Source of the DNA: Candidatus Thiovulum imperiosus
Lineage (GTDB): Bacteria; Campylobacterota; Campylobacteria; Campylobacterales; Thiovulaceae
NCBI GenBank assembly: GCA_024281175.1
Contig: JAMJTW010000008.1
Location: 159,309 to 223,308, forward strand
Reading direction: 5' to 3'
DNA length: 64,000 bases
Shown here one piece after another: positions 8,753 through 57,905 of the stretch. A program made the translations under genes and the position numbers. Below the pieces are notes generated by a model. It was not told where the DNA came from, did no database searches, and was given only the letters and a program-made list of their open reading frames with translations. The first letter of the stretch is position 1; each line of letters opens with the position of its first letter.

Positions 8753-9712
8753 CTAATAGAGAATTCCATTCTTATATAGCTCTTTTCTTATCTTCCCAAA
8801 ACTACTCTGCTTATTAAAACACCAATCTGGAGAAATCAGAGTGGAGTTTTCAACTCCTGCTGTAACTCTCTGAATTGAAATATCTTCTGGAAGTTTCTTA
8901 AAAGAATCAACTATATTTTTTATATATGTTTCTTCAGAAATTGGAGAAAATTCACCTTTTCTATACTGATTTGCGAGAGCTGTTCTCTCAACAACATAGA
9001 GAGGGTGAATTTTTATAGAATTTACTCCAAGTTCTACGGTTTTATCAAAACTCTGTTGCATCATCTCATCACTCTCATCTGGAAGTCCATAAATAAGGTG
9101 TCCACAAACATTCAAATTTCGCTCTCTACTTTTCAAAATAGCCTCTTCCACATTTTGAAAATTGTGTCCTCTATTTATCTTCTCTAAAGTTTCATCAAAA
9201 ATAGATTGAATTCCAAACTCAATCCAAATTTCATGTTTTTTTGAGAGAGTTTCTAAGAAGTCTAAAACCTCATCAGATACAGAGTCACTTCGAGTTCCAA
9301 TACTTAAACCAACAACATTTGGTAGAGAGAGGGCTTTCAAATAGAGTTTTTTCAGGGTCTCTATTGGAGCATAAGTATTTGTAAATGCTTGAAAATAGAC
9401 AAGAAATTTTGAAGCATCATAATCTCTCTCTAACTTTTTAGAAAGTGTTTGAAATTGAAACTGAAGTTCTTGTAATTGCTTTTCTAAAAGAGGATTCTCT
9501 TTTGAATTCAAATTTAAAGTTATACCTTTTATCTTCTCAACTTGATTTAAAATAGGATTGAAGGAGTCATTTTCACAAAAAGTGCAACCTCCTCTTGCAA
9601 CGCTACCATCGATGTTTGGACATGTAAATCCTGAAAGAGCAATTGGGACTTTATAAACTCTTTCTCCAAACTTATCTTTTAAATACTCTCCAAATGTCAA
9701 TATCTTTTTCAA
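8753..9712 (-). CDS. TIGR01212-family radical SAM protein (YhcC-like)
   Basis: N-terminus with KVPIALSGFTCPNIDGSVARGGCTFC cysteine motif characteristic of this radical SAM subfamily; 319 aa. Confidence 0.85.
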   Translation of the reverse strand: MKKILTFGEYLKDKFGERVYKVPIALSGFTCPNIDGSVARGGCTFCENDSFNPILNQVEKIKGITLNLNSKENPLLEKQLQELQFQFQTLSKKLERDYDASKFLVYFQAFTNTYAPIETLKKLYLKALSLPNVVGLSIGTRSDSVSDEVLDFLETLSKKHEIWIEFGIQSIFDETLEKINRGHNFQNVEEAILKSRERNLNVCGHLIYGLPDESDEMMQQSFDKTVELGVNSIKIHPLYVVERTALANQYRKGEFSPISEETYIKNIVDSFKKLPEDISIQRVTAGVENSTLISPDWCFNKQSSFGKIRKELYKNGILY

Positions 9713-9844
9713 GAGTTATGTTCTCCATAATTTTCCCTTGACAATATCAAATCTTTAATAAAAGAAGATAATTATCTTCTTTAAAATATAAATTTAAGAA
9801 ATAGTATTCTACAATACAAAGATAAATTCTTTTTAGGAGAGGTA

Positions 9845-11233
9845 ATGAAGAGTTTAAAGTTAAGTATTGTTACTGCAGTAGCTTTAGGAAGTAGTGCATT
9901 TGCAAATGAAGAGTCAAAAGGTGTTTTCCTTGACAATCTAAAAATTAGTGGTCAAGCAACACTTTACTATCAGACAATGACAAATAGTGTACACGCACCT
10001 TGGTATGGATTGGATGGTGTTTTAAGCAGAGATCGTGAAACTAATGAAAATATTGATGATGATAAAGGACTCTTTCACAAAGACCAATCAAGAGCCAATG
10101 TTGGTCTAAGTTTTAAAGTAGAGTCTGATTTAGGAAACGGTTTTGGTTTTGGAGCTAGACTTAATATTCTTGAAACTCTTGGACTTGAACATAATTTAGT
10201 TTCTGGAACTATGCAAAATGTAAATGGTGTTGATGACCATGATGATGTAACAGTTAGAACTTCTATGGCAGGACCTTCTGGTTACAATATGGGTCAAAGT
10301 GATGATGAGTGGTATTTTGGTGAGGCGTATATTACTAAAACACTTGGTGCTACTACAATCAAAGCTGGACGACAAGAATTAAATACTCCACTTGTATACT
10401 CAGAAAAGTGGAATGTTCTTCCAAATACTTTTGATGCCGTTGTTCTCTTAAACCAAGATTTAGCTGACCAAGGTATTACCCTTGTTGGTGCTTATGTGAG
10501 TAAAAGAAACCACCATAAACATCTTGGACAATTTAACTCTATGCCAAGTCCAGATGGTGCTTACGCAGCTGCTGCTGTTTATAACAACAGTGATATAAGT
10601 GGACAAGCGTGGTTCTATAATGTTCCATCAGTAGCCAACGCTTACTGGATGGACGCAAATTATGGTCTTGAAGTTGCTGATGGTCAAAAAGTTGCTATTA
10701 CTGCTCAACTTGCTGGTTTTATGTTAGATGATGACCCAGCAGATGGTAGTGATACAGACTCGATGGCTGCTGCTCTACAAGGTTCTTATGATATAGTTGA
10801 AGGAACAAAAGTTTGCTTGGCAGCGTCATTGACAACAGGAGAAAAATCTAGTCACGCAATTTCAAATGTTGGAACAGGTATTAAAACAAAAATAGCTACT
10901 CACACAATTTCTGCTGATGGTCCAGTAGCAGGTGCAACTGATACAAAAAGTTATAAACTTACTCTAAAACAAGATTTGAGTTCTATTGCTGAAAACACTT
11001 CTTTAAAAGTTGATTTTGCCCAATTTATGCATGGTGAAGATAGTTCTTCTAATTATGCTGATGAGACAGCAACTGCTTTTGAGACTGTTTTAAAGTCTAA
11101 AGTTTCTGGTATGGATGTTATGTTGGCATACATCATGGCTCAAAATATTCATAACTGGACAGTTAAAAAAACAACTGAAACAGAGTCAGAAACATCTCAC
11201 ACAGTTCGAGTTGTAGCAAGATATAACTTCTAA
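9845..11233 (+). CDS. Outer-membrane porin (Campylobacter MOMP/PorA-like)
   Basis: Signal peptide MKSLKLSIVTAVALGSSAFA, alternating beta-strand pattern, C-terminal aromatic ...VVARYNF, strong SD (AGGAGAGG) upstream. Confidence 0.7.
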   Translation: MKSLKLSIVTAVALGSSAFANEESKGVFLDNLKISGQATLYYQTMTNSVHAPWYGLDGVLSRDRETNENIDDDKGLFHKDQSRANVGLSFKVESDLGNGFGFGARLNILETLGLEHNLVSGTMQNVNGVDDHDDVTVRTSMAGPSGYNMGQSDDEWYFGEAYITKTLGATTIKAGRQELNTPLVYSEKWNVLPNTFDAVVLLNQDLADQGITLVGAYVSKRNHHKHLGQFNSMPSPDGAYAAAAVYNNSDISGQAWFYNVPSVANAYWMDANYGLEVADGQKVAITAQLAGFMLDDDPADGSDTDSMAAALQGSYDIVEGTKVCLAASLTTGEKSSHAISNVGTGIKTKIATHTISADGPVAGATDTKSYKLTLKQDLSSIAENTSLKVDFAQFMHGEDSSSNYADETATAFETVLKSKVSGMDVMLAYIMAQNIHNWTVKKTTETESETSHTVRVVARYNF

Positions 11234-42720: not shown

Positions 42721-44199
42721 TTGTTTGATAATAAATATGTAGAACAGAGAATTGAAAAGGGAGAAGCTCTAAAGTCACTTGGAAAAAATCCCTATGAAAA
42801 TAGAGTTTCCAGAGATGGGCTTACAGCAGATTTTATTGAAAAATTTGGGAATTTAGAAGACCGAGACGAGTCTGAAAGTTTTAGACTGATTGGAAGAATT
42901 AAGTTTCTTCGACTTATGGGAAAAGCATCTTTTATGAAAATCGAAGACTCAGAGGGTATTCTTCAAATTTATGTTTCTAAAAATCAGCTTGGAGATTGGT
43001 TTGGAGATATTAAGAATATCGTAGAAGTTGGTGACCTCATCGAAGTTGAAGGTTTTCCTTTTGTTACAAAAACTGATGAACTATCTCTAAATGTTCGAGA
43101 ATTCAAAATCGTAACAAAAGCTATCTCTCCACTACCAGAGAAGTTTCATGGATTACAGGATAAAGAGCTTCGATATCGACAAAGATATCTAGATATGATA
43201 ATGAATTCAGAAGTTAGAAAAGTTTTCAAAACTCGAAGTAGAATTGTTTCTGAAATTAGACACTTTTTTGAAAGCAGAGAGTTTTTAGAAGTTGAAACAC
43301 CAATGCTTCACCCAATTGCAGGTGGTGCGAATGCCAGACCATTTATCACTCACCACAACGCTCTTTCAGTAGATAGGTTTCTAAGAATTGCTCCTGAACT
43401 CTATTTGAAAAGACTTTTAGTTGGTGGATTTGATGGTGTTTTTGAGATAAATAGAAATTTCCGAAATGAGGGAATGGACCACACTCACAATCCAGAATTT
43501 ACGATGCTTGAGTACTATTGGGCATTTCATAGAGTAGAAGATTTGATGAAACTTACAGAAGAACTTTTTGACCACCTTTTTGAAAAATTGGAACTATCGA
43601 GAGTTTTAAAATATGATGAGAGCGAAATAGATTTTTCAACTCCTTTCCAAACTTACACTTATCGAGAAGCTCTTGTAAAAGTTGGAGAAGTTCCAGAAAA
43701 TATTCTGCTTTCTATACCTGAAATGGTCGCATATTTAGAGAAGCACGATTTAGAACTTCCTCAGACTCTTTCTCTTGGGTATCTTTGGGCAGAACTTTTT
43801 GATAACTTTGTAGAGAAGAAACTTATCAATCCAACTTTTATTACAGAGTTTCCAATTGATATAAGTCCTCTTGCTCGTCGAAATGACCAGAATTCTGAAA
43901 TTGCAGACCGTTTTGAACTCTTTATTCACGGTACTGAAGTTGCAAATGGATTTAGTGAGTTGAATGACCCAATTGACCAGTATGAAAGATTTAAAAAACA
44001 GCTTGAAGCTAAAGATGATGGAGATGATGAAGCCCATGAGATGGACGAAGATTATGTAAAAGCTCTCTCTTATGGAATGCCACCAGCAGCAGGTGAGGGA
44101 GTTGGAATTGATAGACTTGTAATGCTTCTTACAAATCAGCACTCAATTCGAGATGTTCTACTGTTCCCTGCAATGAAACCTCTACATCACGAAGAGTAG
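42721..44199 (+). CDS. lysS: Lysine--tRNA ligase (class II)
   Basis: 492 aa; OB-fold N-domain, class II motifs [24 protein letters not shown]; TTG start. Confidence 0.97.
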
Positions 44200-45759: not shown

Positions 45760-46788
45760 TTAGTATAGAAACATAACTCTAGCTCCAGCAGAGTAGAATT
45801 TATCGATATAGTGATTTGGATAGACGGCACTATAATTTGTTAGAAGTTTCACATTTTTACTGATATGCCAATTCAGAGCTAAATCCCACTTTTCCTGATA
45901 CTCTTCGACAACATCTCTTAAATCCAGTCTGGAGTATCTTAAAGCTATTTCGAGGTCATCGCTATTTTTAGCATTGCTAAATTTTGCTTCACCCAATTTG
46001 AATTTCTTTTTTCCACCAAAGAGAAAGTAGCCAACTTGGGCGTAGTATCCAAAAAGTTTATACTTATCAAGATGACTTTCCAGATACTCTGCTTGAAAGT
46101 GAAAAGAATCTTTTAGGTAGAGAGTTTCAAATCCAAAATCTTCTGTATTTTCCACATTTTTGAAATTTACATTTAGAAGTTTCTCTTCTATTTCCTCAAT
46201 TCGAGATTTATGTTTATATCTTCTATTGTCATCATAAAAATCTGTATACATGTAGGAAGTTCCAATATGAACTTTCTCCCCTTTTCCAAGTTTGTATCCA
46301 TAAGTTGCTTTTACAACGCCTCTAGTTCTCTTATCATCATCATCTCTCTCTTCATCAATAGAGTTTTTAAAAACTCCGAAAAAGATATTTGTTCGATGTT
46401 TATCAACTTTTGCTGAAAGGGAAACTTCCGAACCAAGTTTTCTATTTTCTGTAAGAGTATCTACAAGAGAACTCTCCATAAAAGGAGAGTATTTGGAACT
46501 TGAGTAGGTTTCCATAGAGAAAGGAATTTTCATATTTCCAACTTTCACTCTAAATCCATTGAAGCCATATCCAAGATAGACATCTTTAAAACTTACCTCA
46601 TCAGCAAAATCCAATTCAGCTTCATAGAAGAAATCTTGTAGAGAACCTTTATGAAAAACTCTAGCTCTTCTAATTTCGCTGTTGCTTTCCTCATCTGTAT
46701 AGGTAAAATCAGCATCTAATCTAGCTCCAAATTTGAAATCTTCTCCAAATAGAAAAGAGCTAAAAAGTATGAAAACTATATATCTCAT
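45760..46788 (-). CDS. Outer-membrane beta-barrel porin (OprO/P-like)
   Basis: Signal peptide, alternating amphipathic strands, C-terminal aromatic ...ARVMFLY. The family assignment is tentative. Confidence 0.5.
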   Translation of the reverse strand: MRYIVFILFSSFLFGEDFKFGARLDADFTYTDEESNSEIRRARVFHKGSLQDFFYEAELDFADEVSFKDVYLGYGFNGFRVKVGNMKIPFSMETYSSSKYSPFMESSLVDTLTENRKLGSEVSLSAKVDKHRTNIFFGVFKNSIDEERDDDDKRTRGVVKATYGYKLGKGEKVHIGTSYMYTDFYDDNRRYKHKSRIEEIEEKLLNVNFKNVENTEDFGFETLYLKDSFHFQAEYLESHLDKYKLFGYYAQVGYFLFGGKKKFKLGEAKFSNAKNSDDLEIALRYSRLDLRDVVEEYQEKWDLALNWHISKNVKLLTNYSAVYPNHYIDKFYSAGARVMFLY

Positions 46789-48167
46789 AAATCTTCCTTA
46801 TCTAATACTATGTAGTCTGCTGGATTGTTTGGCTTTTTCCCATTATCCTCAACAAGAAGAAGTTTGGTTTTATTTCCTTTAAGTATCGCTACTCCCTCTG
46901 TAAAACCTATTTTTGGTTGGTTCTTTACAAATTCAGCTTTCCCATTATTATCTAAAAACCAGAGTTCAAAATCTTTCTTTCCTCTATCTCCAGAAGCACC
47001 AGCAACAACCCAATATCCATTTCTCTCATTATCATAAGTGAAATCTCGAATTCCAAGACCGTTCAAATTGAGAAAGATAGGTTCTCCAAACTCGAGTTTT
47101 TCCAAATCTTTTATTTCAAGTATCACCGCATTTTCTGAATGGAGTGGAGTTCTAAATCCTATATGTAGATTTTTGTTAAATGCCAATCCCTCGATATTTA
47201 TCTCATTTCCAAAAAGGTTTGGAAACTTTTCATAAAGTGCCTCTTTAAGTCCAGAGTAGGCGATGAGGTTCTCTGCTTTTCCATCGATATAGTCAAATTG
47301 CAATATCTGATTTCTTCGCTCTTTATCCAAATCTTTTCGAGTATTGCTGTGAGATGTAATTGCATAAACTCTATTTCCATCTATCGTAACAGCTTCTAAA
47401 TCATCAACCTCTTTCTTTAAAACTCTTTTAAACTCTTTTGACATAGGAAGTTTCCCATCTTCTACAATTTCACCATCTTTTGAAATGCTCAAAAGTGAAA
47501 AGCTCTTTTTTGCCTCATCTTCAACGACAAGGATTTTTCCGTCTGGAAGTTGAACTGCTCCAGATGGCTCAAATATATTTTCAAACTCATCTTTCTGATA
47601 GGGAACTGTTCCCGTTGAAATTGTGTTGAATGGGGTCTGGTCTATGAAAATAAGACCATATACTGCTAATAGCACACTTATCACTAATCCAATTGAAAAG
47701 TATGTGTAGGCTTGTCGTAGCCAAAAATATTTCTTTTTGATTTCCGCTCCTAAAATGTGAAGGTGTAGAGTTAAATTTTTTGCTGAACTATCAAAAGAGG
47801 AGATAGTTTCAGCAGTCTCCAACATAAAATCGGCAGGATGCATTTTTGCCATATCATCATAATAGAGTAGAGACTCATAATTCTCTATTTTCTCTTCCTT
47901 TTTCAAAAGTCTCTCTTTTGTTCTTGGTCGAATAGCAAAAGCTGCGAGAATGATTGAGATAAGAGCAGTTAAGATGATTGAAGCGAAAGCAAAATTCATA
48001 ATATTGTTATGAACAACAAAGCCAGAAGCCGTCATAATGACGGTAAGAATAAATCCATTGACTGAAATCAATATTCCAGCTTTTGTGTCTGCTAGTGTTG
48101 TTAAGTCAAGATTTGATTTCAGACCATTTCTGAAATATGTTCCAACTAGCTTTGTATCTTTTTTCAT
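46785..48167 (-). CDS. Membrane protein: N-terminal DUF5706/Pycsar-effector-like TM module fused to DUF3616-like beta-propeller
   Basis: N-terminal LDLTTLADTKAGILISVNGF followed by 3 TM helices. The C-terminal half has VQLPDGKILVVEDE, IEGLAF, GYWVVAGASGD, reminiscent of DUF3616. Domain calls are from memory. Confidence 0.5.
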   Translation of the reverse strand: MKKDTKLVGTYFRNGLKSNLDLTTLADTKAGILISVNGFILTVIMTASGFVVHNNIMNFAFASIILTALISIILAAFAIRPRTKERLLKKEEKIENYESLLYYDDMAKMHPADFMLETAETISSFDSSAKNLTLHLHILGAEIKKKYFWLRQAYTYFSIGLVISVLLAVYGLIFIDQTPFNTISTGTVPYQKDEFENIFEPSGAVQLPDGKILVVEDEAKKSFSLLSISKDGEIVEDGKLPMSKEFKRVLKKEVDDLEAVTIDGNRVYAITSHSNTRKDLDKERRNQILQFDYIDGKAENLIAYSGLKEALYEKFPNLFGNEINIEGLAFNKNLHIGFRTPLHSENAVILEIKDLEKLEFGEPIFLNLNGLGIRDFTYDNERNGYWVVAGASGDRGKKDFELWFLDNNGKAEFVKNQPKIGFTEGVAILKGNKTKLLLVEDNGKKPNNPADYIVLDKEDL

Positions 48168-49795
48168 CTAATTTCTGTTACGATACCCGAAACTGTGAAA
48201 TCTGTAAAAGCTGTTCCATTTAAAACTAAAGTGTAAGCTCCTGAAACCAACTCTTCAGAAGAGAAAACCACAGATTGGTAACTTTTGTTTGGCGTAAATT
48301 GGATTAGCTCATTTCCAGAACTATCCTCTATTCCAACTAGAGTTCCAGCACTTTGGAGAGATGAGAGATTTAGTAAAACAGAGTTTTGAGTCGAAGTTTC
48401 ACTTGGGGACTCTGCCATTCCAGAACTTCCAACTGCAATTAGAGTTCCACCATTTATATTAAATGTGTAATCAACATCTAAAGCACCGTTGTTATTTGCT
48501 GTTGGTCCATTTACAAAAACAGTTCCGCCATTCATTTCGATATATCCATTTGAGTCGAGACCATCTCCATCAGCATCTACATAGATTGTTCCACCATTTA
48601 TATATAGGTAATACTCTCCAGACTCAGACATCATTCCGCCAATTGCTCCTCTGTCTGGCATCTCTCCATTTGGCGGTAGCATAGCAAGTAGAGTTTGAGT
48701 TGCTGTATCAGTATTTACCATATTGATACCATCATCACTTGAGACAATATGGATTTCTCCACCATTTAAAATTCCAAGTCTTGACTCAAGCCCCTCATAA
48801 GATTTTGAGATATTTATCTCTCCGCTATTTATTTCCAAAGAGAAGTCAGCTCGAATACCGTCATCAGCTGAAGCTAGTGAGATAGAACCACCATCTATTA
48901 AAACATCACCATCACTATTGAGTGTATCATCAGCGGAGTCTATTGAGAAAGTTCCATCAATAATATGAATGCCACCATTTGATTTCAAACCTTTTGCCGA
49001 CTCTGATGAGGTAGCACTACTTCCATCGCCTGTTGAGATAGAGAATGTTCCTCCAGAAATTGTCATATTCTGCTCAGATTGGATACCATCATTTTGTGCT
49101 GTAATAGAGAAGTTTCCTCCATAAATCTCTATATATCCTCTCTCAACATCTTCCTCATTTGTAGATTTCATGCCATCTCCAGAAGCATTTATAGAGAAAT
49201 CTCCATCTTTGATGATGAGGTAATCTTTTCCAACAATTCCATCATCAACCGATGATATTTCTATACTTCCATTCTGAATTACTAAACCATCTTTGCCCTT
49301 AATTCCATCGTTGTAATTTGCCGTTACAATTAGAGAACCACTACCCTCTATACTCAAATCATCTTTGCTGTAAATTACAGAGTCCTCTTCCCTCTCGATA
49401 TTTGCATCGGAAAAGTAGTTCTCTCCACTCAAATTTAAAATTGTCTCTTTTGCACTGAGAATTGTAATTGGAGCAGTCTCTTCACTATTTATAGAAACAC
49501 CATTTAGATAGAGATTTACAACTCCATCTTCAGGAGCTTGTACAAAAATTTCACCATCAGATAGAGAACCAGAGATATTGTAGTCTCCAGCCATTGAAAG
49601 AGTGATGCGATTTCCAGAAACTGTAACTCCACTTCCTGAAGCAACTGTGTTTCCATCTTGAAGAAAGATGTTTGCAGAAGTTTCGCCTTGCTGACTTTCA
49701 ATTTCAACTTCTACTGAAGTATCTGTTTCTGTATCACTTTCACAACCAGTTAAAAGCAGAGTAGCTAAGATAGATGAGATATAGATATTTTTCAT
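48164..49795 (-). CDS. Lipoprotein, Cthe_2159-like carbohydrate-binding beta-helix family
   Basis: Lipobox LLLTGCESD. Many reiterated (S/A)(S/A)DDGI / GDG(L/M) turns typical of the PF14262-type parallel beta-helix. Confidence 0.65.
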   Translation of the reverse strand: MKNIYISSILATLLLTGCESDTETDTSVEVEIESQQGETSANIFLQDGNTVASGSGVTVSGNRITLSMAGDYNISGSLSDGEIFVQAPEDGVVNLYLNGVSINSEETAPITILSAKETILNLSGENYFSDANIEREEDSVIYSKDDLSIEGSGSLIVTANYNDGIKGKDGLVIQNGSIEISSVDDGIVGKDYLIIKDGDFSINASGDGMKSTNEEDVERGYIEIYGGNFSITAQNDGIQSEQNMTISGGTFSISTGDGSSATSSESAKGLKSNGGIHIIDGTFSIDSADDTLNSDGDVLIDGGSISLASADDGIRADFSLEINSGEINISKSYEGLESRLGILNGGEIHIVSSDDGINMVNTDTATQTLLAMLPPNGEMPDRGAIGGMMSESGEYYLYINGGTIYVDADGDGLDSNGYIEMNGGTVFVNGPTANNNGALDVDYTFNINGGTLIAVGSSGMAESPSETSTQNSVLLNLSSLQSAGTLVGIEDSSGNELIQFTPNKSYQSVVFSSEELVSGAYTLVLNGTAFTDFTVSGIVTEIR

Positions 49796-49940
49796 ATTAA
49801 TTCTTTTTCTAAAATTATATTTTGAATGTGTGCTAAAAATGTGCTGTAAAAGATAATACCTTGAAAAAATGAGTGACTAAATAGAAGATTTTTATCTTTT
49901 GGAAACTTTTGTAAGAACTTAATAAAAATTTAAAACTACT

Positions 49941-50011
49941 GTCATTTCGAGCTACTCGAGAAATCTCGGAAAGGAGACCTTTCCATTCCGCTTCGCTCTA
50001 GTCGAAATGAC
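49941..50011. repeat. Small palindromic (MITE/REP-like) element, copy 1
   Basis: 10-bp terminal inverted repeats GTCATTTCGA / TCGAAATGAC. Internal hairpins TCGAG-CTA-CTCGA and GGAAAGG-AGA-CCTTTCC. Shares GAGAAATC and CGCTTCGCTC blocks with the copy at 55418..55512. Confidence 0.75.
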
Positions 50012-50019
50012 AAGAATGG

Positions 50020-50610
50020 CTAGGTCACTTCCCAATTTAGAAGATATTTTGTCATGCTTTGAAAGTCTGGAAATTCATACTTCATAGAAAATGAAAGAGC
50101 ATTTGCGATTTTCTTTCTCTCTTCAGTTAGAGATTTACTATCTAATTTGAAGATTTGGATTGTAAACTCAGCTTTTTCAAAATCTTGTAAGTTCAAATCT
50201 TCTCTAATTAGAATATCTCCAGCCCAACTATACTCAAAGAAGTTTTCAGGGTTTTCAAGAACTGGATTTACGATTTTTACATAGTCTTCTCTTTTCAATC
50301 CAAAATTATCTTTTGTATGGGAGCAGTGAAATTTGCTATTACAAGAGACGAGTAAATTGTTGTAATTTAAAGTTTCTTCAGGAAAACGGTCTCTTGTTTT
50401 AAAGTGGTCTATATTCGAGTTTTCTGGTAAATCATCTATCTCTTTTTCGCAATAAGCACATAGAAGACTCTGCTCTTCAAGTAAAATATCGGCTCTAAGT
50501 TTAGCTCTTATCTCTCCAATCTCTTCCCAAGCCTTGCTCTCTTTTGGCTTTTTGACTTTAGCTTTTGTTTTTTGGAAATAAGAGGGTTCTTCTTTTTCAA
50601 TTTTAAACAC
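50020..50610 (-). CDS. HNH endonuclease, PtuB-like (TIGR02646-type)
   Basis: CAYCEKEI...NIDHFKTRDRFPEETLNYNNLLVSCNSKFHCSHTKDN matches the CxxC...H-F-x-P...N-L-L-x-x-C HNH pattern of Septu/retron-associated PtuB. 8-nt overlap with the upstream ATPase. Confidence 0.75.
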   Translation of the reverse strand: MFKIEKEEPSYFQKTKAKVKKPKESKAWEEIGEIRAKLRADILLEEQSLLCAYCEKEIDDLPENSNIDHFKTRDRFPEETLNYNNLLVSCNSKFHCSHTKDNFGLKREDYVKIVNPVLENPENFFEYSWAGDILIREDLNLQDFEKAEFTIQIFKLDSKSLTEERKKIANALSFSMKYEFPDFQSMTKYLLNWEVT

Positions 50611-51991
50611 CTCTTTTTCTCCGCATATCCATCTCCATTTTTAAAAGTTTTAAATCTAAATCTGTTTTTCCAAGAGAATTTTCTAGCTGTTCCCAAAAAA
50701 CTTGAAACTTTTTATCTTTAAATCTATTTGAGTAGATAAGTTCTTTAATCTCTTTTATCTCTTGTTCAATTTCTGGAGTTCTGGTTTCATCTAATCCCAT
50801 TACATCAGTCAAAACTTTTTGAAACTCTAAACCGTAACTCTTTTCAGCTGTTAAAACTCCAGTTGGCGTAAGAACTCTTATTGTTTCACTTTTTGCACTT
50901 CCAATAATATGAGGTGAATGAGTGGCTACAACTATTTGGCAATTGTTATTTTTAGCAAAATTTTCATAAAGTTTCAAAACACGATTTTGCCAACTTGGGT
51001 GAAGAGATAATTCTGGCTCATCAATTAAGATTATTTTATTTTTTATGTCTCTAAAATAGAGATACAAAACTTTGCTAACAAGAGTCTTTTCACCAGTTGA
51101 AAGCTGATTTATATTGAACTCTTTTTCACTACTATTTTTAAAATAGATGTTGTCCTCTAAATCAACTCTGCTGAAATTGAAAGTTAAATCCAATCCAGAA
51201 AAAACCTCTGAAATATATTTTTGAAGTTTCTCTGTAATTTGGTCAATATTGAGTTTCTCAATTCTGAACATTCGATTGATATAGTCTAAAATTAACTTTT
51301 CCAAATCACCAAAAACATTTACTTCAACTGGTAAATACTCTATTCGTTTCAGATATTCAGACTTCTTTTCTCTAATTCCATCAAAACTTTCGCGAAGTTC
51401 AAATATATCCAATTCACCATTTTCATCTGTTTTGAAAATTTCAACAGAGTCTCCATCTTTTAAACTATATTTTGAAAGATATTCCAAAATAGTTGTTTTT
51501 CCAGTTCCATTTTTTCCAGCAATTACAATTAGAGATAGAGGCTTTTTATCACTATCTTCAAAACTTAACTCAAAATCTTGAAACATTTTGCTGTCTTTGA
51601 TGAAGATGTTTTTGATTTTATACTCATTTGGCTTTAAGTCTTGGAACTGGCTTTGTTGGAGTTGCTTAACGCAATTATCGATATATTGGAAAAGTTCAGT
51701 TTTTGGATTTACAGATTTACTAAGTTTTACAGAAGAGAGTTTGAAATTTGGTTTAGGGCAGTTTTGATTTAAAATATTTGTTTTTCTAAAAAATTTAAAA
51801 TCTAAGTTTTTAACTTCACCAGTTACTTGGACTAAAGCAATAGGAAAAATGCCATTTTTAATAAGAACAATATCACCAATATTCATACTTTTAAATTGTT
51901 GAATTTGTGAGCTTTTCATAAAACTTTTTCTAATAGAAATATGATTTCCATTGTCACCAAAATCATAATCTATCATATGCCAATAGGTCAT
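50603..51991 (-). CDS. ABC/AAA_21-type ATPase, PtuA-like, with extra N-terminal domain
   Basis: Walker A IAGKNGTGKTT, signature-like LSTGEK, Walker B IILIDEPELSLHP, H-loop VATHSP. The ~150-aa N-terminal extension has a PUA/EVE-like pattern YW...MNIGDIVLIKNG..PIALVQVTGEV. Confidence 0.75.
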   Translation of the reverse strand: MTYWHMIDYDFGDNGNHISIRKSFMKSSQIQQFKSMNIGDIVLIKNGIFPIALVQVTGEVKNLDFKFFRKTNILNQNCPKPNFKLSSVKLSKSVNPKTELFQYIDNCVKQLQQSQFQDLKPNEYKIKNIFIKDSKMFQDFELSFEDSDKKPLSLIVIAGKNGTGKTTILEYLSKYSLKDGDSVEIFKTDENGELDIFELRESFDGIREKKSEYLKRIEYLPVEVNVFGDLEKLILDYINRMFRIEKLNIDQITEKLQKYISEVFSGLDLTFNFSRVDLEDNIYFKNSSEKEFNINQLSTGEKTLVSKVLYLYFRDIKNKIILIDEPELSLHPSWQNRVLKLYENFAKNNNCQIVVATHSPHIIGSAKSETIRVLTPTGVLTAEKSYGLEFQKVLTDVMGLDETRTPEIEQEIKEIKELIYSNRFKDKKFQVFWEQLENSLGKTDLDLKLLKMEMDMRRKRGV

Positions 51992-52085
51992 CTACTTCCC
52001 CAGTTTCACCAATCCAATTCCAACAGCGGTGAGGAGGAGAAGTCCTCCAATTGTGTAAAGTATTACTTCGGTAGTTACAGGTTCG

Positions 52086-54971: not shown

Positions 54972-55360
54972 ATGAAGAAATTAGTTCTATTTTTTACCCT
55001 CACGCTCTCTCTTTTTGGAATTGAGAATAGTTTTATCGACTCACTACCAAAACTCCAATAAAAGAGGAACTTGAGGGGATAACTGGGTTGAATTGTGCAA
55101 TAAAAAGTATTTCAAATATTTCTGGAATAGGAAATCTTTCTAATTTGACTTACCTCTATTTGCATAACAATTCGATTTCAGAGATAGGTAGTGAAATAGG
55201 AAATCTTTCTGATTTGCAATACCTCTCTTTGCATAAAAACAACATAACAGAAATTCCATCAGCTCTAAATTCGCTTTCAAACTTGAGTAAGCATTTAAAT
55301 CTACTACAATTACCAAATCCTCTTCTGAAACCGTTGTTGAGTTCCTTGAAAGAGTTTTAG
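54972..55360 (+). pseudogene. Frameshifted small secreted leucine-rich-repeat protein
   Basis: ATG 54972 gives the signal peptide MKKLVLFFTLTLSLFG..., which stops at 55059. A different frame, open from 55031, continues as ...EELEGITGLNCAIKSISNISGIGNLSNLTYLYLHNNSISEIGSEIGNLSDLQYLSLHKNNITEIP (LxxLxLxxNxI repeats). Confidence 0.5.
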
Positions 55361-55417: not shown

Positions 55418-55512
55418 GTCATTTCGAACCCTTTAGGGTGAGAAATCCTTGTATTGAACGAAGTGAAATATCTTTCAAGATTTCTCAATCGCTTCGCTCA
55501 TATCGAAATGAC
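55418..55512. repeat. Small palindromic (MITE/REP-like) element, copy 2
   Basis: Same termini GTCATTTCGA / TCGAAATGAC as 49941..50011. Internal long-range pair GAGAAATC (55440-47) / GATTTCTC (55479-86). Shared CGCTTCGCTC block. Confidence 0.75.
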
Positions 55513-56173: not shown

Positions 56174-56974
56174 ATGAAAGAACTTATCAAAGTTTCTCAA
56201 AACAGAATAGGAGACGACGAAGTAAATTCCGTTTCTGCTAGAGAATTGCATAAAGCATTAGAGTCTAAAGACGAATTTGCACACTGGAGCAAAGCTCAAA
56301 TTAAAAGAGCTGGACTAGAAGAAAACATCGATTTTATCAAGGTTTGGAGCGATGGGGAAAAACCCATCGCTAAATTTATCCTAGAAAAAGAACTTTTAAA
56401 AAAGTTTAAGTCTGTACAACAAGCGACAGCCTCTGGTTGGCAATCTGATTACATCTTAACTATTGAAAGTGCAAAACATATTGCTATGATGTCAGGAACA
56501 CAAAAAGGAAAAGAGGTCCGAAACTATTTCATTGAGATTGAAAAGAAGTTTTGGCAAGTTTCCGAAACAAAAGTTTCTTCTTTAAAAGATTTAGATAGAG
56601 CAAAAATGAAAGAGTTGAAGTTACAAGTTCAAGATTTACAAGAACTTTCAAAACCAGTTTTAGAGTTTTCAAAAACTCTTCAAACTGAAAATCCATACAC
56701 CCTTACAGTTCTTGAAAAGATTACAAAAGAGAATTTAGGTTTTTCACTTTTTGAAACTTTTCAAATTGACTTTTCAGAAACTCTGTTTCTACCAACTGAG
56801 CTTGGAAAATTTATTGGAGTTTCAGGAGCTGAAATGAATAGGAAATTGAAAGAGAGAGGTTTTCAAATTCGAGATGGAAAAAATTGGAAACTTACAGAAA
56901 AAGGAAAAAAGTTTGGAAATGATGTTTCCGAAGATTTTCCGCAACTCAAATGGAAAATTGATGTTCTTTTGTAA
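56174..56974 (+). CDS. Phage antirepressor (AntA N-domain + KilAC/ANT C-domain), copy 1
   Basis: VNSVSARELHKAL...F..W; DYILTIESAKHIAMMSGTQKGKEVRNYFIEIEKKF (AntA-like); C-terminal LPTELGKFIGVSGAEMNRKLKERGF (KilAC-like). Confidence 0.8.
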   Translation: MKELIKVSQNRIGDDEVNSVSARELHKALESKDEFAHWSKAQIKRAGLEENIDFIKVWSDGEKPIAKFILEKELLKKFKSVQQATASGWQSDYILTIESAKHIAMMSGTQKGKEVRNYFIEIEKKFWQVSETKVSSLKDLDRAKMKELKLQVQDLQELSKPVLEFSKTLQTENPYTLTVLEKITKENLGFSLFETFQIDFSETLFLPTELGKFIGVSGAEMNRKLKERGFQIRDGKNWKLTEKGKKFGNDVSEDFPQLKWKIDVLL

Positions 56975-57179: not shown

Positions 57180-57905
57180 ATGAAAGAACTATTAAAAGTT
57201 TCTCAAAAGAGAATAGGAGATGAGTCTGTAAACTCTGTTTCTGCTAGAGAATTGCATGTAGTGTTAGGGGTGAGCAAAGATTTTTCAAGCTGGATAAAAG
57301 CACAATTGAACAGGGGTTTTTTTGTAGAAAATATTGATTACATCGTTGTTCCAATTGGCAAAAGTTTGCACCCCCAAAAAGGTGAGCAAAGAGGTGGTCA
57401 TAATAAAATAGACTATATTCTTACTCTTGAAACAGCTAAACATATTGCAATGATGTCTGGAACTCAAAAAGGAAAAGATATTCGAGATTATTTCATTGAG
57501 ATTGAAAAGAAGTTTTGGCAAATTTCTGAAACAAATGTTTCTTTAAAAGATTTAGATTTACAAAGTGTTGAGACAGACTTAGAAACTGTGAGTAGAATTC
57601 TAAAGATTTTTCAAGAACACAACTCTTTAGAAAAAACGCAATTGGATAACTTCATAAATGCTAAATTTGGCGTTTCACTTCTCCAGAGTTTTAAAATCTC
57701 TTTTCAAAACACTCTTTTTCTACCAACCGAACTTGGAAAATTTATTGGAGTTTCAGGAGCTGAAATGAATAGGAAACTGAAAGAGAAAGGTTTTCAAATT
57801 CGAGATGGCAAACATTGGAAATTGACAGAAAAAGGCGTAGAGTTTGGAAATGATGTTTCCGAAGAATTTCCACAACTCAAATGGAAAATTGATGTTCTTT
57901 TGTAG
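57180..57905 (+). CDS. Phage antirepressor (AntA + KilAC), copy 2
   Basis: Paralog of 56174..56974. The N-terminal ~25 aa, the DYILTLETAKHIAMMSGTQKGK block and the C-terminal ~60 aa are near-identical. The middle is divergent. Confidence 0.8.
   Translation: MKELLKVSQKRIGDESVNSVSARELHVVLGVSKDFSSWIKAQLNRGFFVENIDYIVVPIGKSLHPQKGEQRGGHNKIDYILTLETAKHIAMMSGTQKGKDIRDYFIEIEKKFWQISETNVSLKDLDLQSVETDLETVSRILKIFQEHNSLEKTQLDNFINAKFGVSLLQSFKISFQNTLFLPTELGKFIGVSGAEMNRKLKEKGFQIRDGKHWKLTEKGVEFGNDVSEEFPQLKWKIDVLL

Follow-up and report, generated by a model that had tools for sequence, protein, structure and literature searches.

Which system is encoded by the two overlapping genes that follow ileS in Candidatus Thiovulum imperiosus, and what does an additional domain at the N terminus of the first product bring to it? 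The genes lie in a stretch of 64,000 nucleotides (nt; contig JAMJTW010000008.1, positions 159,309-223,308), here called the window, in which all coordinates below are numbered unless a different contig is named. An earlier reading of these letters without database searches (the sequence-only reading) had placed here an ATPase gene and an HNH nuclease gene and had proposed that they form a Septu (PtuA/PtuB) defence system. From the analysis described below, the locus is very probably a stand-alone type I Septu system, consisting of the ATPase PtuA and the HNH nuclease PtuB, and its PtuA is of a subfamily whose N terminus bears an additional PUA-like domain (DUF8426).

The ptuA and ptuB genes and their family assignment

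The first gene, ptuA (50603..51991, minus strand), starts with ATG and encodes an ABC/SMC-type ATPase of 462 amino acids (aa), and the second, ptuB (50020..50610, minus strand), starts with GTG and encodes an HNH nuclease of the TIGR02646 family of 196 aa. The genes are adjacent and co-oriented, the arrangement that the operon criterion of Septu describes, and share 8 nt (50603..50610, minus strand; GTGTTTAA), which is consistent with translational coupling; homologous ptuA/ptuB pairs likewise abut or overlap. A Shine-Dalgarno-like motif, GGGGAAG, lies 5 nt 5′ of the ptuA start. Database copies of PtuA differ in their start, the NCBI copy (P0242) having 462 aa and the JGI copies (P0001 and P0241) 457 aa, from M6. 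The agreement of MTYWHM with the family consensus MTYWHMQLHP, together with the NCBI copy, supports the start at M1 against the M6 call (window 51977-51991). The profile alignments of PtuB begin at its residue 1.

Both products were assigned to Septu families by profile searches. PADLOC matched PtuA to PDLC00289 (E = 1.3e-78) and PtuB to PDLC00326 (E = 7.1e-44); in Pfam, PtuA scored 93.9 bits with AAA_21 and 77.5 bits with AAA_15, each above its cut-off, and TIGR02646 scored 91.7 bits on PtuB against a cut-off of 52.15. By sequence, PtuA matched the solved chains of Septu (8ee4) and of the PtuA of retrons Ec83 and Ec78, and PtuB matched PtuB chains in the PDB (9n69_F and 8ee7_C; E = 1.6e-14 to 4.6e-9). 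The AlphaFold model of full-length PtuA had a predicted local distance difference test (pLDDT) score of 84.3, and when it was compared with the PDB using Foldseek, the top 39 matches were all PtuA chains, E. coli Septu (8eea) among them, with whole-chain template modelling (TM) scores of 0.36-0.44. PtuA shares no more than about 15-20% of its residues with the solved PtuA chains.

The residues expected of an active pair are present in both proteins. The ABC ATPase core of PtuA (aa 125-385; 50837..51619, minus strand) contains the Walker A motif GKNGTGKT (aa 159-166), the signature LSTGEK (297-302), the Walker B motif LIDEPELSLHP (322-332) and ATHSP (356-360), and the invariant columns of the PtuA alignment are kept at G159, N161, G162, G164, K165, T166, S298-E301, D324, E325 and H358 (H-loop). 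The core is followed by a C-terminal helical extension (aa 386-462; 50606..50836, minus strand) with four predicted helices (aa 387-459 in the model), which would correspond to the region that clamps PtuB in the solved complexes. The HNH (beta-beta-alpha-Me) core of PtuB (aa 43-102; 50305..50484, minus strand) carries CAYCE (51-55), DHF (68-70) and NLLVSC (85-90), with the Cys4 knuckle (C51, C54, C90, C96), the catalytic H69 and N85, and the invariant K100 and D101 all kept, and the conserved C-terminal region of PtuB is also present. The sequence-only reading was thus exact in the coordinates and open reading frames (ORFs) of two overlapping minus-strand genes, and the motifs that it had quoted all fall on invariant columns of the family alignments. 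Its proposal of a Septu pair, for which it had suggested searches with PADLOC, AAA_21, AAA_15 and TIGR02646, is borne out by those searches, by the sequence matches to solved structures and by the predicted fold of PtuA.

The PUA-like N-terminal domain of PtuA

Ahead of the ATPase core, the sequence-only reading had overlooked a domain of 124 aa (aa 1-124; 51620..51991, minus strand), a predicted PUA-like pseudobarrel which carries the source-database tag DUF8426 (Pfam PF28530). An AlphaFold model of the window copy, made with an alignment of 42 sequences, showed a mixed beta-barrel and two helices (pLDDT 91.5, predicted TM score 0.83). Its best Foldseek match in the PDB was the EVE-HNH enzyme VcaM4I (6yex), in the domain that reads 5-hydroxymethylcytosine (5hmC; E = 1.4e-3, TM 0.56-0.59), and further matches were the EVE proteins 1zce, 2gbs and 2eve and the YTH domains (readers of N6-methyladenosine) of Mmi1 and YTHDF2. 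The match probabilities were 0.95-1.0, and nearly all matches came from one superfamily. Pfam EVE (PF01878) was the sole recurrent family in the 42 domain sequences (6 of 42, best E = 0.009), and the domain profile gave no match to PDB sequences, even at E <= 10. Based on the model, residues 1-124 are confidently predicted to adopt a PUA-like (EVE/YTH-type) pseudobarrel fold.

The domain is common to 82 of the 119 non-identical PtuA homologues among the matches listed, which are proteins of about 480-530 aa; the remaining homologues, of about 310-360 aa, begin directly at the ATPase. An exhaustive profile search yielded 467 DUF8426-type representatives among 1.84 billion proteins. Ten longer DUF8426-type proteins were checked (P0268, P0297, P0315, P0323, P0339, P0359, P0371, P0287, P0303 and P0274) and comprised six McrB-type AAA_5 proteins, one McrB-McrC fusion, two KAP nucleoside triphosphatases (NTPases) and one other AAA_21 ATPase. 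All of these architectures retain the signature residues W-H-x-Q, I-G, G-D-I/V-V, A-L, D-W-F...R and I..W. In McrB-family type IV restriction enzymes, the readers of modified DNA occupy the same N-terminal position. Because McrB-type and KAP NTPases begin with this domain, and the readers of McrB are likewise N-terminal, DUF8426 is probably a modular domain for sensing nucleic acids or for targeting. PUA-HNH enzymes, which restrict phage DNA containing 5hmC or 5-methylcytosine (5mC), are also examples of N-terminal modified-DNA readers (PMC6765204). In published structural work, stand-alone PtuA is described without an N-terminal extension, and the extension of retron PtuA is helical and binds reverse transcriptase (RT) (PMC12819146). 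Our literature search found no mention of DUF8426 and no description of a PtuA with a PUA or EVE domain. Therefore, the DUF8426-equipped PtuA is, as far as the literature searched shows, an undescribed variant in a locus that is otherwise known in kind.

The copy in the window has diverged from its family. It is without the EKELLE helix and without the segment where the DWF motif has its near-invariant W, it carries substitutions at highly conserved positions (Q to I, L to D, G to S, Y to F and W to C), and its profile score is 95.5 bits, against 120-200 bits in typical members. It still has its core beta-strands, which fold well in the model. Judged from its sequence, it is a degenerate DUF8426 copy, and its function as a reader may have been weakened or altered. 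Despite this erosion, the Septu machine at the core of the system should work in this locus, because many homologues are without the domain altogether.

Distribution and surroundings of the pair

Four assemblies of this organism contain the ptuAB pair in identical form, and the nearest non-identical homologues of the pair (51% identity for PtuA, 61% for PtuB) are patchy across unrelated metagenomes. The sequence-only reading had proposed a comparison of the ileS neighbourhood and had counted universal conservation in the clade, with a demonstrated housekeeping role, against a Septu pair; neither ptuA nor ptuB was found at any of 160 ileS-anchored loci of related Campylobacterota (80 reference-genome and 80 metagenome loci). 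This patchy distribution fits an accessory defence gene. The closest matches of ileS itself were from a Campylobacterales metagenome-assembled genome (74%) and Ca. Thiovulum stygium (72%), which places the window in a Thiovulum-related member of the Campylobacterota, and an exact 27-mer from the 3′ end of ileS had no match in metagenome contigs.

The homologous DUF8426-ptuAB loci occupy several kinds of context. At locus L085, the genes are part of a defence island that also holds the gene of an EcoRV-like nuclease and another AAA_15/AAA_21 pair; the endonuclease and an unannotated 780-aa gene directly follow DUF8426-ptuAB (L085 10192-13613, plus strand), and the second pair, an AAA_15/AAA_21 ATPase of 504 aa (1346-2860) with a 223-aa partner (675-1346), is on the opposite (minus) strand and adjoins SbcCD. 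At L087/L088, the DUF8426-ptuA locus adjoins a HigB toxin gene and ptuB is fragmented; ptuB is called there as pieces of 67 and 122 aa (9445-10056), and tblastn aligns 176 residues over 9445-9966, which suggests an internal stop or frameshift in a decaying Septu copy. At L170, the genes stand amid housekeeping genes. Three further loci (L086 5574-16927, L169 2615-11536 and L171 2600-11524) have DUF8426-ptuAB at the same spot in a type I cas operon, in the order cas6-cas8-ptuA-ptuB-cas7-cas5-cas3, which runs on to cas4 in L086 and L169 and to cas1-cas2 in L086. Between these three loci, PtuA identity is 41-54% and cas7 identity 71-87%, and PtuB of L086 is 28% identical to the other two. Taken together, these values suggest a long-standing, possibly functional association of Septu with CRISPR; no description of the cas-embedded arrangement was found in the literature.

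In the window, ileS lies 94 nt upstream of ptuA and the gene for a Cthe_2159 lipoprotein lies downstream of ptuB. Consensus scans and folding of the spacer between ileS and ptuA (51992..52085, minus strand; GC 46%) found no terminator-like site, no significant RNA structure and no convincing promoter; since neither a terminator nor a significant structure separates the genes, co-transcription of ptuAB with ileS is possible. In the promoter and terminator consensus scans, sites were rarer than in shuffled controls and none 5′ of ptuA was convincing; the sigma-70 consensus also describes Campylobacterota promoters poorly. The call of a 33-aa ORF that spans the stop of ileS (L001 9884-9985) is probably spurious.

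A repeat element begins just 3′ of the ptuB stop. Its ptuB-proximal copy (49940..50012) is bounded by perfect 11-nt arms, TGTCATTTCGA/TCGAAATGACA (49940-49950 and 50002-50012), and starts 7-8 nt past the stop; the sequence-only reading had recognised a real repeat element here, with an offset of 9 nt that needed this small correction. As RNA, this copy is predicted to form a hairpin of -29.3 kcal/mol (z = -2.8) followed by a U-rich tract, and it is plausibly the terminator of an ileS-ptuAB or ptuAB transcript. The second full copy (55418..55512) is upstream of ileS, beside the remnant of a leucine-rich repeat (LRR) gene. A 20-base motif is common to both copies (2 occurrences against 0 expected). 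The element, whose terminal inverted repeats are GTCATTTCGA ... CGCTTCGCTCnnnTCGAAATGAC, was found only in contigs of this organism. The two full copies have the same orientation and bracket ileS-ptuA-ptuB, and a half-site is present at 43878-43887. L001, a strain variant, has its upstream copy elsewhere and in the opposite orientation, which suggests mobility or recombination at the element.

The description of the pair as sitting alone beside an envelope operon was correct as far as further Septu or retron genes go, none of which adjoins it, and incomplete in that the operon (45760-49795) contains a PycTM-type effector domain. This domain is in a 460-aa protein (46785-48167, minus strand) with a PycTM/2TM-effector N-terminal domain and a DUF3616/DUF6929 C-terminal domain (Pfam PF18967, 57.5 bits against a cut-off of 27.2; PADLOC PycTM, 6e-19). 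The gene sits between the Cthe_2159 lipoprotein gene and a Porin_O_P gene, with no cyclase adjacent, and its product may be a candidate defence effector or a membrane protein of shared fold. On the other side of ileS, the window has a 90-aa LRR fragment (55088-55360, plus strand), the same as in L002, and the near-identical contig L001 has an intact 571-aa LRR protein (L001 5150-6865); the LRR site beside the ileS-Septu block is a strain-variable locus. Further on are tandem paralogous AntA/KilAC antirepressor-like genes (56174-56974 and 57180-57905, both plus strand; AntA 2e-19 and 4e-22), which are phage-derived or mobile-element-like, and their identity of 63-96% between L001 and L002 is a further sign of a variable region.

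Alternatives, proposed mechanism and known systems

Several observations weigh against the assignment of the locus as a Septu system with a reader-type domain, or bear on its history at this site. The ATPase core of PtuA, of about 340 aa, has a far shorter distance from Walker A to signature than the solved PtuAs (465-550 aa), and so the geometry of the oligomer may differ. The Foldseek E-values of the N-terminal domain are marginal (best 1.4e-3; TM 0.5-0.59), Pfam EVE is above threshold in none of the 42 domain sequences, with no EVE match at all for the window copy, and 8 of 29 highly conserved positions of the domain are lost in the window, including the Q, the G and two W, residues which PtuA, McrB and KAP fusions retain. 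Published Septu systems conflict over whether DNA is nicked or tRNA-Tyr is the substrate, and over the requirement for the ATPase. Protein scans with ileS in genome and metagenome contigs found no relative above 74% identity, and ileS synteny is not conserved. The sequence-only reading had judged the pair by eye as more AT-rich than its neighbours. This is real yet modest: GC is 28.7% in ptuA (z = -2.0 among 48 ORFs), 32.5% in ptuB, 37.9% in ileS and 33.6% in the window, and GC at third codon positions of ptuA is ordinary (z = -0.46). Because third positions are normal despite the low overall GC, composition is poor evidence of recent transfer, a point missed in the sequence-only reading, and horizontal transfer argued from composition was set aside as not well supported.

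The shared fold raises the question of whether the locus acts by modification-dependent restriction, in which the N-terminal domain would read modified phage bases and direct PtuA and PtuB to cut foreign DNA, in place of abortive infection or tRNA cleavage. The fold of the domain resembles the reader of VcaM4I and EVE/YTH domains, McrB-type GTPases and a McrB-McrC fusion, the classical type IV scaffold, begin with the identical domain and share its conserved residues, and PUA-HNH enzymes restrict 5hmC/5mC phage DNA (PMC6765204). However, the window copy is without the conserved tryptophans, Q and G, its fold match is marginal, base binding by DUF8426 is putative, and in its other parts the system is canonical Septu, where direct modification dependence is unreported; this explanation is considered unlikely. 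The same erosion could mean a decaying or silent remnant, with intact ORFs and a defence that is no longer effective, and the deletions in the N-terminal domain, its lost invariant residues, its score of 95.5 bits where 120-200 are typical, and the related locus L087/L088 with its fragmented ptuB all lean that way. Against a remnant, the ORFs are full length, the catalytic residues of the ATPase and HNH proteins are all intact, the N-terminal domain is predicted to fold confidently, the sequence is identical across several independent assemblies, and the domain is dispensable for the core machine, being absent from many functional-looking homologues of about 310-360 aa, which makes decay an improbable account.

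Two further explanations fare worse in the face of the profile scores and the distribution. Retron type I-A models also match the pair (ATPase_I-A, 5.2e-39; HNH_I-A, 9.5e-34), and the best PDB matches by sequence and fold are retron PtuA and PtuB, as would be the case for an orphaned Ec78/Ec83-like effector with its RT and non-coding RNA lost or located elsewhere. But the stand-alone PtuA and PtuB models score about twice as many bits as the retron models, and the NCBIfam equivalogs remain below their cut-offs (NF041760, 119.7 against 500 bits; NF041761, 111.2 against 150 bits). No RT-sized ORF is adjacent, every ORF of at least 150 aa in 44-60 kb being accounted for, and Rfam at the gathering threshold returned one tRNA only in the 64-kb window, its coverage of retron RNAs being incomplete. 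The N terminus of PtuA is also PUA-like, where retron PtuA has a helix extension that binds the RT (PMC12819146). Because the Septu models fit, no RT-sized gene is adjacent and the retron equivalogs score below cut-off, the pair is read as stand-alone Septu; the retron origin, which the sequence-only reading had not recognised as excludable, is very improbable and largely refuted. As for a housekeeping ATPase-nuclease pair for DNA repair or RNA processing with a functional tie to ileS, the genes are indeed 94 nt downstream of ileS with no intervening terminator, and the ABC ATPase fold is common to RecF, RecN, SMC and Rad50. The distribution contradicts such a role: the pair is absent from all 160 related ileS loci, the nearest PtuA is at 51% identity, occurrence is patchy across unrelated metagenomes, and homologues sit in defence islands and cas operons. 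Hardly any credence can be given to it.

For a stand-alone Septu system, a mechanism can be proposed by analogy with characterised members. Septu is widespread, and one paper puts its share at about 4% of genomes (PMC6765204). The E. coli Septu complex has a hexamer of PtuA built from three dimers, two of which each hold one PtuB clamped between their C-terminal domains (PMC12065111). Stand-alone PtuAB nicks DNA less as ATP rises, and a phage tail fibre is reported to sensitise the system (PMC12819146). Septu EcB88 requires its Walker A/B and H-N-H residues, shows abortive-infection behaviour and cuts tRNA-Tyr in its variable loop upon T6 infection (PMC13096335). For the locus in the window we infer, as to oligomeric state, trigger, substrate and ligand, that PtuA dimers or oligomers would hold the PtuB HNH nuclease between their C-terminal helices, as in the solved E. 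coli Septu, and that the nucleotide state of this ATP-gated scaffold would restrain PtuB. Phage infection would then release or activate the nuclease, which would nick DNA and/or cut tRNA (tRNA-Tyr, within its variable loop, in E. coli Septu), halting phage replication at a cost to host growth. The DUF8426 domain would most likely be a module that recognises or senses nucleic acid (possibly a modified base); in the window copy, this added function is perhaps weakened or changed, as the domain is shortened and without family-invariant residues. A wider and more tentative proposal, which we regard as possible though on the doubtful side, is that DUF8426 is an undescribed PUA-like reader clade fitted interchangeably onto defence NTPases (PtuA, McrB, McrB-McrC and KAP), that the PtuA subfamily is a reader-equipped Septu whose activation or targeting goes through a modified base or structured RNA, and that in some Campylobacterota it has also become part of type I cas operons, placed between cas8 and cas7.

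How Septu senses infection and chooses its substrate is debated, with a tail-fibre trigger, the ATP level, DNA nicking and tRNA-Tyr cleavage all under discussion. A PtuA subfamily with a built-in PUA-like domain shared with McrB-type enzymes gives a direct handle on this sensing, through the questions of which ligand is bound and whether it gates the nuclease, and the PtuA in the window is a natural variant with an eroded reader that is useful for comparison. The locus adds Septu to the poorly studied, uncultured Thiovulum-like lineage, and the pair should be annotated as Septu.

Among known systems, PARIS (AriA/AriB) and Gabija (GajA/GajB) resemble the locus in having an ABC/OLD-type ATPase that scaffolds a nuclease partner, and differ in the partner, which is HNH here and not the Toprim AriB or the UvrD-like GajB. 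PADLOC AriA models match PtuA at 7.7e-29, against 1.3e-78 for the PtuA model, and PARIS was rejected on this far weaker score and on the TIGR02646 HNH partner, which is not a Toprim/DUF4435 AriB. With type IV restriction enzymes (McrBC with EVE/YTH-like N-terminal domains, and the PUA-HNH enzymes VcaM4I and TspA15I), the locus shares a PUA-like fold ahead of an NTPase and an HNH effector, and McrB-like proteins bear the very same DUF8426-type domain as PtuA of the window. McrBC was nevertheless rejected, the N-terminal domain being the only part in common: the NTPase here is of the ABC type (AAA_21/AAA_15), not an AAA+ AAA_5 McrB GTPase, and the TIGR02646 nuclease is a protein of its own, neither McrC nor a fused HNH domain. 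The putative pocket residues of the N-terminal domain are also missing from the window copy. Retrons of type I-A (Ec78/Eco7 and Ec83 PtuAB) have a homologous ATPase and HNH protein and supply the top PDB matches by sequence and fold; unlike them, the pair in the window is without an adjacent RT, a non-coding RNA match, equivalog scores above cut-off or the long helical flap insertion, and the N-terminal extension of its PtuA is a beta-barrel reader fold, not an RT-binding helix. Stand-alone Septu type I (E. coli Septu 8EE4/8EE7/8EEA and EcB88) agrees with the locus in the operon of an ATPase and a TIGR02646 HNH protein, the profile matches, the catalytic motifs, the C-terminal PtuA helices (predicted in the window) and the lack of an RT, and PtuA of the window departs from it in its shorter core (about 340 against 465 aa) and in its extra 124-aa PUA-like N-terminal domain.

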